From positions 37,014,001 to 37,078,000 of the forward strand of contig OZ024757.1 of NCBI GenBank assembly GCA_964016885.1: a DNA stretch of 64,000 nucleotides, written 5' to 3'. The number at the start of each line of letters is the position of its first letter. Position 1 is the stretch's first letter. Below the pieces are notes generated by a model. The model was not told the origin of the DNA. It was given only the letters and a program-made list of their open reading frames with translations, and did not search any database. Source of the DNA: Eledone cirrhosa (taxonomy: Eukaryota). The position numbers and the translations under genes were made by a program. Positions 7,454 to 12,532 of this stretch are shown in pieces.

Positions 7454-7516
7454 AGTCCTATGATTAAAACTTATTTCAGTATTTTTGGTGTTGATAATCC
7501 TGCAATTATGAGGACT
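7454..7516 (+). ncRNA. SNORD96: Box C/D snoRNA, SNORD96-like, copy 2, RACK1 intron 3
   Basis: Stem AGTCCT/AGGACT; same C box, guide and ATGA D box as copy 1; differences only between the boxes and in the flanks. Confidence 0.78.
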
Positions 7517-8383
7517 TGTTTGTGCTGTTTTCTTCATAGTTATGTTAGCTTTCCTAGAAGTGTGGTGGTTTCTAGGAAACATTTAACCTGTTGACTGCCG
7601 CGTATATTTTACAGAGCTACCTACAGTTGCTGTTTTTTTTTTTTGTCCCCAGTAAAATGACTACTTTGATTGACAAACGTTACATCAATATAATAGTAAC
7701 CACATCTAGCTTTGAAGTAATGATCTGTTGGAAAGAAGTTCAAACATGTTAGTGTGAGTTATCTCGTCTGTTGAACTGAAGAGGTTAGACTCTAATTACA
7801 AAGAGATTTAGTAATATAACTTTCTGATTATTAAGCTACTGTGGGGTGGCAATATCTGTAGGGCATCGGGTGAAATCCTTAGTGGTATTTGGTTGGGGCT
7901 CTATGTTTTGAGTTCAACTTTACTTTTCATCCTTCTGCGGTTGATAAAATAAAGCTCCAGTTACGGACTGGTTCCGGTATAATCAATTCTTCCTTTCCTA
8001 CTCCTTTCTCTCACAAATTTCAGGTTTTGTGTCAAGATTAGAAACTTATAATTAAGCTGGTGTTTGGAACAAAAGGATTTACATAAAATTATGATGGAAT
8101 GGTTTTAGATCAATATAAAGAGTTTTAACCCTTTAGCATTCGCATTAATTTTCAAACGTCATGCTTATCTGGCCGGTTTGAACATTAAAGAGTTAAACTC
8201 ATTTCTAACTTGTACACTTATCTAGTGGACTCCAGGCTAAAGAGAGCACCATGCTGAGGTCTTTTCCTGGTTAACAACTGTATAGTTTAGTACCTTGCTC
8301 TAAACAAATACATATATGTGTTATAATAAATTACAATTGTTGTTTGATTTGAAATTATCATCTTGCAATTTTCAATCCCTGTT

Positions 8384-8456
8384 TCTGACTCAATGATGGA
8401 AAAATATTGTATTAGCTATTGATATAGAATGAGAACAACTCTTTCTGAGAGTCAGA
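8384..8456 (+). ncRNA. Box C/D snoRNA candidate, family B, copy 1
   Basis: 8-bp terminal stem TCTGACTC/GAGTCAGA; C box ATGATGG (8393); D box CTGA (8445); 73 nt. Confidence 0.75.
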
Positions 8457-9023
8457 TTTTGTTATTAATTTAAAGTTTGGGGCCAATTTAGTATACTGTA
8501 TGTATCATTTAATTCTTTAGATACCAAACTACACCTGGTTCAAGAATTACAAAAGCTGTAGCGTTTGTATTTATTGAAAGGTCTTCCGCTCAGAACTTAC
8601 AGACTACTCCCAGCCATTTTAACCAGTTAAGGACTGTATAATCAACTATCTCCCTCGTAAATTTTGGGGCTTTTGTCAATGTTAGAAACAAATTATTAGA
8701 CTGGTGTTTTGGAACAAAATGTTTTACATAAAATTATATCAGTATAAACAGTTTAAAAGAAAAAGATCTGTATTGTAGAACCAGGGGTGGTTTTAGGCAG
8801 TTTGGTAACACAAAGGTTAATTAAACTCATTTCTAACTTGTACCTAGATAAAATCTTTACACTTAGTTTTCCTAGTGGCCACCAGGTTATAGAGAGCACC
8901 ATGCTGAGGTCATCTCAGGGTTAATAAATATTTATGTATGTTATAATAAATTACAATTGTTGTTTGATTTAAAATTATCATCTTGCAATTTTCAATTTAT
9001 AACAGGGATCGTATATCCCTGTT

Positions 9024-9096
9024 TCTGACTCAATGATGGAAAAATATTGTATTAGCTATTGATATAGAATGAGAACAACTCTTTCTGAGAGTCAGA
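9024..9096 (+). ncRNA. Box C/D snoRNA candidate, family B, copy 2
   Basis: Identical to 8384-8456; preceded by hairpin AACAGGGAT/ATCCCTGTT. Confidence 0.75.
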
Positions 9097-9573
9097 TTTT
9101 GTTATTAATTTATAGTTTGGGGACTTTTGGGCCAATTTAGTATACTGTATGTATCATTTAACCCTTTAGATACCAAACTACACCTGGTTCAAGAATGACA
9201 AAAGCTGATAACTTTAACCCTTTAGCATTTAAACTGGCTGTATCCAGCCAGAATTCTCTCACTTCTTTCTGTTGAAACTGGCCGTAACCGGCCATTCATA
9301 CTGATCAAAATCTCATAGGCTCAATATTATGTGAGCTAAAGCCCTTTACCATGAAAATACAATAGTAAATATAGAGTAATGTAAATGCTAAAGTGCTAAG
9401 CTAGCCAACACTCGAAATTTATAGTTTATTCAACACTTGAATGTTAGATACAATGCTTTGTGGTATTTGTTCTGGCTGGGACATACATTAAATATATATA
9501 TATATGTTATAATAAATTACAATTGTTGTTTGTTGCAATTTTCAATTTATAACAGGGATCATATAACCCTGTT

Positions 9574-9646
9574 TCTGACTCAATGATGGAAAAATATTGT
9601 ATTAGCTATTGATATAGAATGAGAACAACTCTTTCTGAGAGTCAGA
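9574..9646 (+). ncRNA. Box C/D snoRNA candidate, family B, copy 3
   Basis: Identical to 8384-8456. Confidence 0.75.
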
Positions 9647-10099
9647 TTTTGTTATTAATTTATAGTTTGGGGACTTTTGGGCCAATTTAGTATACTGTAT
9701 GTATCATTTAACCCTTTAGATACCAAACTACACCTGGTTCAACATTTATTGTAAACCAGGGTAAGCAGGAGAGAAGAAAAGACAAACATATATATATATA
9801 TATATTTTTCTTCTGGAGTCATCTCTCCATTAACCCTTTAGCATTTAAACTGACCTTATCCAGCCAAAATTATCTCACCTTTTTCTCTTTGAACCGGTTG
9901 TAACTGGCCACTCGTACTCATGTTAAGGTATTGTTCTCAAAATAAATAACAAGATCTCATAGATTCGATATTACGTAAAAATATAATAGTATATATAGAG
10001 TAATGTAAATGGTAAAGAGTTAAACAGTAAGTTATGTGTTTGCTGTAGTCCAGTAATTAAAGCTTTGTCTTATGTCACTATTTGTTTTCTGCTTGTCAG

Positions 10100-10195
10100 G
10101 AAGAAGGCCATGCAGATTGGGCATCATGTGTCCGATTCTCTCCAAGTACCACTCACCCTATCATAGTGTCCTGTGGCTGGGATAAAATTGTAAAG
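10100..10195 (+). CDS. RACK1: RACK1 exon 4
   Basis: [36 protein letters not shown] flanks. Confidence 0.96.
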
Positions 10196-10976
10196 GTAAG
10201 TACCTATATGTTTCTTCTTTTTTGCCTTGATAGGTTTGTGGGGTCACAGTCCTTTCAGGCGGGCACTGGGTTCCCAAACGATGGAAATGTGGAAGAGGAA
10301 GATCTAGAAAAGCACAGCTGAAAATAACGGGGAGGAAGTAGAAGTCATGGTGTTGGTGGGTAATATGGCAAAATAGAGAAGGTTTTTTGTCATGGGTCCC
10401 ATGCATGACTAGATCCCTACTAGAACAGGGGAAGTGACCATAAAATGCTCTCATGCCACGTTTCTTGTTTGTTCCTGTGTCCGAATATGGTTCCATAATT
10501 TATTTTAATACGAGTGCCATCTTTCTATTGTATTTTTTTTTTTACTATATGTGAAGTAAGTCTCATGTTGTGTCCTGTGCCCACGACATACCAGTGGTAT
10601 CCAAGGTCATCCATACAATCTTATGGAACCACTGACATATACTACCACGGCCCTGCAGCTTGTGAGAGTGTTAGGGTATTAAAACGATTCTTGTTAGTGA
10701 TACAGAACTTCGATAATAAAGGTGGCCATGACCAGCTATTTGCAGTATTTTGTTAATATTCATATAATAAAGCCCTTCTAGGGGGCAGTATCGGTGGCGC
10801 TTCAGGCATGCTTTGTGGGTTCAAATCCTGCCACAGCTTTGCCTTTCATCCTTAGGGGGCTGGTGAAGTATGGAATACCAGTAATACACTGAGGTCGATT
10901 TAATTGACTCACTCCCCTCTCCCAAAATTGTTGGCCTCGTGGCTTAATCATTGATATATAATGTCTTTCTTTCTAG

Positions 10977-11087
10977 GTGTGGAATCTTACCAACTGTAAG
11001 CTGAAGACTAACCACCATGGACATGCTGGATTTTTAAATACTGTCACAGTTTCTCCTGATGGTTCTCTCTGTGCCTCAGGTGGCAAG
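10977..11087 (+). CDS. RACK1: RACK1 exon 5
   Basis: [41 protein letters not shown] flanks. Confidence 0.96.
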
Positions 11088-11910
11088 GTAACGTATTTTA
11101 ACCCTTTCGCATTTAAACTGGCCGTAGCCGACCAGAATTCTCTCACTTCTTTCTGTTCAAACCGGTTGTAACTGGCTCGTCATACTATGTGGTTGAGAAG
11201 TGAACTCGTTAACACACAACAATGCCTGTACGTTTGTTCATGTTAGGTTTCCCCTATGGCTTGCATGTCTTAATGTAATGCAGTCATAGTAGTTTTGTAC
11301 TTAAGAATCTCAATGCTGTGGGATGGGGGTGGGTTATTAACTCATGTTTTTGGTGCTTTAGTGAAAAGACGATTGAAACAAATTTGCAGTTTTACTATTT
11401 TTACCTTATCGAGCCGTCTGGCTGATGCCATGCTGGGGCACTGCCAAATATTTTAATGTGATGTAATCTTATTGTTTTGTACATTTCAAGAAGGCCTCGC
11501 TAATGTGGGGTTTGTGGATTCAACTGTTTATAGTACCTTTACTACATTAATTTTGATTTGGTGTATTCATCGAGGTCAAATTTGCCTTTTATCCATTTGA
11601 GTTTGATATAGTACCAGTGGAGTACTGGGGTCGATTCTTCCTCACTTCCATTCTCTTTTGTCTTTCGTCTATTTGAGGTCGATAAAATACCAGTCAAATA
11701 CTGGATTCTTCCTCTATATCTCTTTCTCACTTCCATTCTCTCACACACGCACACTCTTATCCTTCTCTGGAAGAAATCTGTCGTGTTCAGACCTGGAAAT
11801 GAGATGGGCTCCTTCGATTTTAAGATTATCACCCTAGAAACTCCCTGTGTCAATATGGCAACCAATATTTCAGTGTTTGTAATTGATTTTATTTTATTTT
11901 TCTGTTTTAG

Positions 11911-12051
11911 GATGGTCAAGCCATGTTGTGGGATCTTGGAGAAGGCAAACATCTATATACATTGGATGGTGGAGACACTATCAATGCTTTGTGCTTCAGT
12001 CCGAATCGTTATTGGTTGTGTGCTGCAACTGGACCAAGTATCAAGATTTGG
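11911..12051 (+). CDS. RACK1: RACK1 exon 6
   Basis: [51 protein letters not shown] flanks. Confidence 0.96.
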
Positions 12052-12459
12052 GTTAGTTTTCTTTCTTGTTTTCATATAAAAGTACTTAAAATATTTCCTG
12101 GCATCTAAGATGCTACTTTTTATCCCTAAAATAAGTCTAAAAAATCTACCATGCAAACTGAAGGCCGATGGTTGTTTATTACTTTTTTGTACGTCAAAAT
12201 TAGGGTGCGTCCACCAGGGCAAAGCATCTTCGGCACTGGGAAATACGGTACTTTAAGAAAAAGTTAAGAGAATTACAATTTATTTACATATGCGACTTTG
12301 GCAGAGTTGTTTGAATGTTAGATACAATGCTTTGTGGTATTTGTTCCGGCTGAGACATACATTAAATATATGTATGTTATAATAAATTACAATTGTTGTT
12401 TGATTTAAAATTATCATCTTGCAATTTTCAATTTATAACAGGGATCGTATATCCCTGTT

Positions 12460-12532
12460 TCTGACTCAATGATGGAAAAATATTGTATTAGCTATTGATA
12501 TAGAATGAGAACAACTCTTTCTGAGAGTCAGA
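12460..12532 (+). ncRNA. Box C/D snoRNA candidate, family B, copy 4, RACK1 intron 6
   Basis: Identical to 8384-8456. Confidence 0.75.

Follow-up and report, generated by a model that had tools for sequence, protein, structure and literature searches.

The RACK1 gene of Eledone cirrhosa was found in a stretch of 64,000 nucleotides (GCA_964016885.1, contig OZ024757.1, positions 37,014,001 to 37,078,000; hereafter the window, with positions counted from its first letter), and its introns contain four identical copies of a 73-nt unit that likely represents a C/D guide small nucleolar RNA (snoRNA) gene, judging by its sequence features. One copy is alone in intron 6 and three are found in intron 3. 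We suggest, with a probability of about 0.6, that the extra copies in intron 3 are the result of a recent local duplication of DNA, and that they are probably tolerated passengers, handled by ordinary splicing and trimming. From a comparison with one relative (organism B, below) we infer that the copies of intron 3 descend from intron 6, and that introns with a single snoRNA each are the older condition.

Duplicated C/D units in the RACK1 introns

The coding exons of the host, when joined, form an open frame of 954 nt (317 codons plus a stop). Exon 6 is identical in 47 of 47 residues to PDB chain 9eho_hh, and 9EHO is an octopus ribosome according to PMC13321053, which identifies the host as RACK1. 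Contigs from four of the eight runs listed (X1, X2, X4 and X5; the search returned five sequence sets in two studies, none of them RNA by its record and no small-RNA run among them) were compared with the window, X3 and the restriction-site-associated DNA (RAD) runs X6 to X8 being outside the contig comparison. X1 and X2 are DNA-like and come from one sample, possibly the assembly's own; X4 is another sample, judged RNA-like by its spliced contig alone; and X5 is from what we call organism B. The spliced X4 contig has GT..AG joints at 6279>6848, 6995>10100, 10193>10975 and 12050>13037 (the four joints listed). They agree with the exon calls, so the intron numbers of the preliminary description hold, with intron 3 at 6996-10099 (3.06 kb). 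The last coding exon presumably covers human exons 7 and 8, with one coding intron fewer here.

The four copies of the unit, each with its 8-bp terminal stem, had been reported from positions 8384, 9024, 9574 and 12460, and exact matching confirms all of them on the forward strand (Table 1). No further exact copy exists on either strand of the window, which contains no N. The identity common to the four copies extends just 7 nt to the left and 16 nt to the right of the unit. Beyond that, the intron-3 copies are embedded in 250-510 nt of DNA that repeats the surroundings of the intron-6 copy. When these flanks are aligned with those of intron 6, the bases that differ number 5 of 166, 6 of 427 and 6 of 228 (1-3%), and each copy has private indels. 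The substitutions and indels previously described in the flanks are therefore present, but they are slight.

Copies 2 and 3 belong to one head-to-tail dimer of an intron-6 segment, in which 8925-9437 corresponds to 12363-12900 and 9437-9742 to 12311-12628, joined at one shared base. At one site (12601) the intron-3 copies agree with one another and all differ from copy 4, which fits one transfer, although the difference is unpolarised. There is no poly(A) tail, which argues against retroposition, nor other retroposon marks, and the copies stay in the same gene with the flanks of the host, as in cis-duplication. Only short or repeat-derived arms were found among the 25 longest of 102 inverted repeats that could pair the copies. 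The duplicated intron-6 segment is bounded by imperfect inverted repeats (12303-12311 and 12892-12902), and where its end meets its start, at 9437, the joint is a small perfect palindrome. Both features fit template switching or a circular intermediate. We suggest that pieces of intron 6 of about 250-590 nt were likely copied at the DNA level into intron 3, not long ago, taking their intron-6 flanks with them and, in one case, a miniature inverted-repeat transposable element (MITE).

Organism B shows 30 differences over 6702-7054 and may give a glimpse of an older state. One of its contigs, of 1057 nt, begins at 12461 and continues without a break across the unit into exon 7, with a depth of 19.4 (13-20 in the other exon-bearing contigs), so that the unit is conserved in place in intron 6, as seen in this single run. 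Two changes are listed in its unit, at position 44 (spacer) and position 55 (D-side guide), and none in the boxes or the D' guide. Organism B also aligns at both SNORD96-like sites (see below). From this one relative, the older state would have had SNORD96-like genes in introns 2 and 3 and the unit in intron 6.

Table 1. Positions of the RACK1 gene, the snoRNA candidates and the associated repeats in the window.
Feature	Position	Strand	Remarks
RACK1 host gene	4293..13211	+	Frame, splice sites, PDB match, spliced contig
RACK1 coding exons	4293-4401, 6105-6279, 6848-6995, 10100-10195, 10977-11087, 11911-12051, 13038-13211	+	
SNORD96-like candidate a	6533..6592	+	Alone in intron 2; Rfam E 0.52; present in organism B
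Hairpin, 12 bp	6626..6655	+	About 35 nt behind candidate a
SNORD96-like candidate b	7454..7516	+	Intron 3; Rfam E 0.24; older duplicate; organism B aligns at 7435-7487
Hairpin behind candidate b	7550..7579	+	Two stem changes relative to that behind a, both G-U on the sense strand
Older duplicated segment A1	7940..8339	.	Before copy 1; partner A2 at about 8605-8925 before copy 2; partly dispersed repeat
Cassette 1	8308..8558	+	Intron-6 12363-12644 with 20-nt and 10-nt deletions
C/D unit copy 1 (predicted)	8384..8456	+	Intron 3; guide 8408-8417, D' 8419-8422, D 8445-8448; upstream hairpin lost
Cassettes 2 and 3	8925..9742	+	Head-to-tail dimer of intron-6 segment 12311-12900
Hairpin, 9 bp, abutting unit copy 2	9001..9023	+	Intact; also at 12437-12459 (copy 4); mismatched at 9551-9573 (copy 3); deleted at copy 1
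C/D unit copy 2 (predicted)	9024..9096	+	Intron 3; matched exactly by contigs 8781-9046 (X1) and 9015-9241 (X4)
MITE-like dispersed repeat	9214..9399	.	18-nt inverted ends; carried from 12651-12863; another copy at 9830-10023; very high summed contig depth
C/D unit copy 3 (predicted)	9574..9646	+	Intron 3; cassette cut at right (9742) by dispersed repeat
C/D unit copy 4 (predicted)	12460..12532	+	Alone in intron 6; likely parent; in organism B, contig 26 connects 12461-12701 with exon 7

Age of the copies and possible selection

Across the four copies, 0 of 73 columns vary in the core and 9 of 185 in the flanks (Fisher p 0.047, or 0.012 when 4 gap runs are included). This contrast is borderline. 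Since the flanks differ by just 1-3%, the identity of the cores is explained mostly by youth, and it could be taken only as a weak hint of selection or conversion. Thus, in the amplified array of the preliminary description, the extra copies are real, while the selection implied by the term has borderline evidence.

Several points weigh against recent, tolerated duplication. The older segments A1 and A2, which precede copies 1 and 2, differ by 51 of 309 aligned bases (16.5%) up to the cassette edge, and then by only 7 of 221 inside the cassettes; moreover, copies 1 and 2 have the same left cassette boundary behind these paralogous segments. Given this divergence and the common boundary, one recent transfer is no simple explanation; either an old homology steered the recent copying or conversion overwrote an old array. 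The three intron-3 cores are unchanged where 2.95-4.21 substitutions would be expected from the flanks (P(0) 0.015-0.052); as the locus was picked for the identity of its cores, this test is inflated and we treat the P as a hint. Organism B has a binned depth of 6-15 over the intron-3 copies, with eight pieces listed per run, and may itself have such copies. The single messenger RNA (mRNA) joint over intron 3 is also compatible with hidden recursive splicing steps. Lastly, regarding the target proposed below, 485 of 5000 shuffles give a 10-nt match when the whole unit interior is considered, and the ribosomal RNA (rRNA) used, from contig L037, is not of octopus origin and was retrieved by a pattern containing the target.

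The sharp step from A1/A2 to the cassettes, the shared left boundary and the unchanged cores would suit an alternative that we consider somewhat unlikely, namely an old intron-3 array that selection maintains, either for a larger supply of guide RNA or for a snoRNA-ended long non-coding RNA (sno-lncRNA), with gene conversion from intron 6 rewriting the cassettes and giving them a youthful look. However, no leftover homology to intron 6 was found beyond the cassette edges, where 203, 257 and 212 of 300 shuffles do equally well. A second, nearly identical copy in organism B should interrupt its contig, which instead continues across the unit and the flank downstream, and among the 40 of 215 rows listed there is no B-specific difference within 7500-10050, both being weak points. 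The dimer, with its MITE and its end-to-start joint, looks freshly copied, and the choice of the locus for its identical cores favors this alternative artificially. For these reasons, we prefer recent duplication from intron 6.

Processing of intron 3

Four C/D candidates lie within intron 3 (SNORD96-like candidate b and copies 1 to 3), giving the layout known from sno-lncRNAs, with at least two snoRNA genes in one spliced intron. In all six candidates of the gene, the distance from the end of the candidate to the 3' splice site is 255-2583 nt; a terminal stem often offsets such a distance (PMC10234308). The X4 mRNA contig skips 6996-10099 in one joint, and no junction inside intron 3 was found among the 15 of 3007 joints listed. 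One snoRNA per animal intron is the predominant but not a strict rule (PMC11028025), and exonuclease trimming of an intron with two snoRNAs produces a sno-lncRNA (PMC11028025, PMC4234469). In humans, 48 snoRNAs are paired within single introns, and just seven sno-lncRNAs were detected in H9 cells (PMC4234469).

Under recent duplication, intron 3 would be removed as one lariat. If one copy were assembled in a small nucleolar ribonucleoprotein (snoRNP), trimming would yield a normal snoRNA; if at least two were, the exonucleases would halt at the outer ones, leaving capped remnants of 623, 713, 1003, 1263, 1643 or 2193 nt. The cost would be small in both cases, since a solo copy of each family is present in intron 2 or intron 6. 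We therefore expect the mature guides to come mainly from introns 2 and 6, and intron 3 to give a mix of trimmed snoRNAs and capped remnants. The youth of the copies and these solo backups would explain why four C/D candidates are tolerated in one intron. The X4 intron pieces have depths of 2.5-8.2 both inside and outside the predicted sno-lncRNA span, with an empty bin at 6534-6775, and are too weak to rank the readings.

The preliminary description held that an intron with several snoRNAs would need endonucleolytic separation or recursive or cryptic splicing, and proposed the abutting hairpins as processing signals. We find such a polycistronic precursor improbable, and neither claim is upheld here; some copies may nonetheless be silent, as it alternatively suggested. 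Clustered intronic H/ACA snoRNAs in Drosophila (PMC3089462) and the splicing-independent release reported for some vertebrate snoRNAs (PMC11028025) offer precedents for it, and hairpins stand beside all SNORD96-like copies and two of the four units, those on the SNORD96 side keeping their pairing despite two G-U changes. Nevertheless, Drosophila C/D snoRNAs occur one per intron (PMC3089462, PMC1821038), and the hairpins are best kept at solo copies (unit copy 4 and SNORD96-like candidate a), so they predate the array. The unit hairpin is whole at solo copy 4 and at copy 2, and lost or damaged in copies 1 and 3, which is the reverse of what is expected from a signal for polycistronic release.

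A crude consensus scan for splice sites gave 8 acceptor-like sites in the 3.06 kb of intron 3 (2.6/kb), near the background of 1.8-2.0/kb outside it. None of them lies between copies 2 and 3, and no donor-like site in intron 3 scores 5 or more, while real donors score 4-6. The only AG-then-GT site, at 8023, has a strong acceptor between SNORD96-like candidate b and copy 1, a point in favor of recursive splicing, but the donor rebuilt there fits just 2 of 6 consensus positions. Neither signals nor splice sites are thus kept between all members, as they should be in a polycistronic cluster. Ordinary trimming, with sno-lncRNAs as its product and solo copies elsewhere, would be sufficient, a route absent from the preliminary description.

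Assembly and repeat checks

The contigs confirm the spacer between copies 1 and 2 without any difference at 8529-8805 (X1 and X2), 8781-9046 (X1) and 8641-8911 (X4). These contigs link the flank of copy 1 to the start of copy 2, so the spacer exists outside the assembly. In X1 and X2 the depth over the contigs of 8529-9046 is 8-11, compared with 7-11 in neighboring unique DNA. The contigs end where the copies branch: the start at 8529 is 30 before 8559, the end at 9046 is 29 after 9017, and the X4 contig starts at 9015. Read as the ends of a k=31 graph, these mark the departure of copy 1 from the shared sequence (8559) and the entry into it of copy 3 (9017) and of copy 1 (9015). That the extra copies are an assembly error is very improbable, even though X1 to X3 contain just 0.79, 0.78 and 0.70 of 115 sampled words, none of the contigs listed extends over the joint at 9437 or over the whole array, and X1 and X2 may be the sample behind the assembly of the window: the spacer contigs are exact in X1, X2 and X4 at single-copy-like depth and link neighboring copies, their ends coincide with the points of divergence, and each copy has indels of its own.

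In X1, the summed depth over the bins of copy 1 and copy 2 is 3.5 and 44, against 10^4-10^5 over the MITEs, which indicates that the unit is not a dispersed repeat. Unlike a MITE or a short interspersed nuclear element (SINE), it has 4 copies in 64 kb, all in RACK1, the genome-wide number being derived from contig depth alone. Two doubts raised in the preliminary description, a collapsed assembly and a unit repeated throughout the genome, are thus not borne out as far as the contigs show.

Separately from the array, a contig of the DNA-like runs X1 and X2 fuses exon 6 to exon 7 without intron 6 (12050>13037, depth 7.7 and 6.6). It differs at 12000 from the mRNA contig, and no other exon joint is listed for these runs. 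It is likely a 5'-truncated RACK1 retrocopy located elsewhere in the genome.

Identity and predicted target of the unit

The unit has a C-like box ATGATGG (unit positions 10-16), a D' box TTGA (36-39), a C'-like box ATGAGAA (46-52) and a D box CTGA (62-65). The C box agrees with the consensus at 6 of 7 positions, the D box is perfect, and the 8-bp terminal stem is present in both the minimum free energy and the centroid structures. Folding z-scores of the unit with its flanks are modest (+1.0 to -2.2). Nowhere in the window does a match to an Rfam family attain the gathering score. With E values up to 5 allowed, 16 weak matches were obtained, 13 of them of C/D families on the six candidate places, with snoR31, U54 and SNORD73 being discarded as generic box matches.

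That the unit is a chance or repeat-derived sequence rather than a snoRNA is again very improbable: its best Rfam E is 0.61-1.4 and its C and D' boxes are each one base off the consensus, but it combines boxes and stem with a sense orientation within a ribosomal-protein intron, its guide ends one base before D' on a helix with four known human methyl sites, it is retained in organism B, and its summed depth is in the tens where MITEs have tens to hundreds of thousands.

For the target search, eukaryotic rDNA was taken from public contigs, and 18S, 5.8S and 28S were delimited in L037. Eukaryotic rDNA was observed in many prokaryote assemblies (L002-L055; about 260 stretches estimated), and L037 has tandem rDNA units at 6850-12935 with a group I intron in the 28S. 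A match on a viral contig (L001) was rejected as an rRNA source since it has no Rfam rRNA match.

The D' guide of the unit matches 18S 162-171 of L037 in a duplex of 10 Watson-Crick pairs. This duplex stops one base short of D' and is the sole match of at least 8 in the D+5 test of the unit. Among shuffles of the 14-nt guide, 80 of 5000 match equally well, and the Rfam consensus agrees with the target at 9 of 10 positions. The methylated base is the fifth before D or D'. In this register it would be U165 of L037, equivalent to human U169 (offset 4), which holds only if TTGA is D'. The same offset places human Am159, Am166, Um172 and Cm174, sites given in PMC11550049, on A, A, U and C of L037, and Um168 of Arabidopsis is the equivalent of Um172 (PMC2685112). 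Human U169 is not among the methyl sites listed in the part of PMC11550049 drawn on, and no paper on 18S Um169, Um165 or Um164 with a snoRNA was found in a literature search that covered texts other than the supplementary snoRNA tables, which could name the site. The D-side guide has no rRNA duplex of at least 8 with up to 2 G-U in the rRNA of L037 and is changed in organism B, which suggests that the D side is probably idle. The intron-6 copy is thus predicted to give a C/D RNA of about 70 nt whose D' guide would methylate the 18S U three bases before the Um172 equivalent.

SNORD45 (Um172), SNORD44 (Am166) and Arabidopsis snoR122 (Um168) likewise have a D'-side guide to this helix. However, the unit points at U165 of L037 instead of the positions of Um172 or Am166 and has no match to their Rfam families at E up to 5; with its register at U165 and not at U168, given TTGA as D', it was rejected as a SNORD45/snoR122 guide of Um172. 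In a scan of metagenomes for homologues of the unit (6 of 64 parts), 121 matches in 118 loci were obtained, nearly all stemless and none a close homologue. One metagenome contig (L080) contains two C/D snoRNA-like genes (204-287 and 792-879), the first with a TTGA D' box and a guide, in the Am166 register, to the 18S helix predicted as the target of the unit.

SNORD96-like candidates in introns 2 and 3

The SNORD96-like copy previously noted in intron 3 was recovered, below the Rfam gathering score, and a second one was found in intron 2. They score 26.1 and 24.8 bits, against a gathering score of 43 for RF00055, and b differs from a by 21 mismatches in 161 aligned bases. The D guide of candidate a forms 8 pairs with 5.8S 70-77 of L037 and its fifth base falls on G74, the place of Gm75 (site assignment in PMC11550049), although an 8-nt match to 5.8S is by itself not above chance (1856 of 5000 shuffles). 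Candidate a thus shares with SNORD96/U96A both its predicted target and its place, human U96A being in RACK1 intron 2 (PMC3941584). The candidates differ from SNORD96 by their 25-26 bits against 43, by deviating boxes (ATGATTA, ATGA) and by the second copy in intron 3. No invertebrate case of SNORD96 in RACK1 was found among the titles searched.

The 12-bp hairpin behind these candidates occurs nowhere else in the window. Both changes in its stem are neutral for pairing (G-U), a hint of selection on RNA structure. A crude scan of 4290-13300 gave no further C/D candidates, intron 1 (4402-6104) included, and no SNORD95-like gene was seen. U95 is in RACK1 intron 1 in humans (PMC3941584) and in intron 6 in chicken (PMC2653536); our unit is in the latter intron and has no SNORD95 match.

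Comparison with known systems

Searches for octopus and cephalopod intronic snoRNAs gave nothing on the RACK1 locus by title or abstract, supplements being outside their scope; the main text of PMC11014333 does not contain 'Rack1', and nothing specific was seen in the parts of PMC6984369 consulted. Four C/D candidates in one invertebrate intron are unusual. A bolder proposal is that intron 3 is a selected array of four snoRNAs, either producing a snoRNA-capped ladder of 0.6-2.2 kb, which would be the first mollusc sno-lncRNAs, or cut by a novel nuclease, with a guide that marks an 18S uridine (the human U169 equivalent) unlisted in human. We consider this unlikely. So far nothing points to processing machinery of a new kind, and animal introns with more than one snoRNA have been described before. 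The locus also offers a natural test of how an invertebrate deals with an intron that has four C/D snoRNAs in a highly expressed gene, and the sizes of the bands to be expected are predicted exactly.

Drosophila (H/ACA) and plant intronic clusters resemble intron 3 in having several snoRNAs per intron. They differ in that the Drosophila clusters are H/ACA and those at RACK1 are C/D, and no release signal was identified at RACK1. Closer in layout are the sno-lncRNAs and same-intron pairs, such as SNORD116 of the Prader-Willi syndrome (PWS) region and SNORD49A/B in SNHG29 intron 2, with at least two C/D snoRNAs in one spliced intron, the prerequisite for a capped remnant (PMC4234469, PMC11028025). 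Most human same-intron pairs gave no detected sno-lncRNA. While mammalian sno-lncRNAs often involve non-coding hosts or exon skipping, at RACK1 any such RNA would come from four candidates in a ribosomal-protein gene of an invertebrate, in an intron that is constitutive.

The best parallel for the origin of the copies is the cis-duplication of C/D snoRNAs, which is the main source of snoRNA paralogues in chicken (PMC2653536) and is also reported in sponges (PMC3412847), while four DmSnR60 copies are found in Drosophila mfl (PMC1821038). In these cases, as at RACK1, copies spread within the host gene at the DNA level, in sense orientation and with a well kept sequence. However, the chicken, sponge and mfl copies occur one per intron, whereas at RACK1 three entered one intron that already had a snoRNA. 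We therefore regard the locus as a snapshot of an intronic snoRNA copied between introns, with the donor segment, the joints and the passenger MITE still readable.

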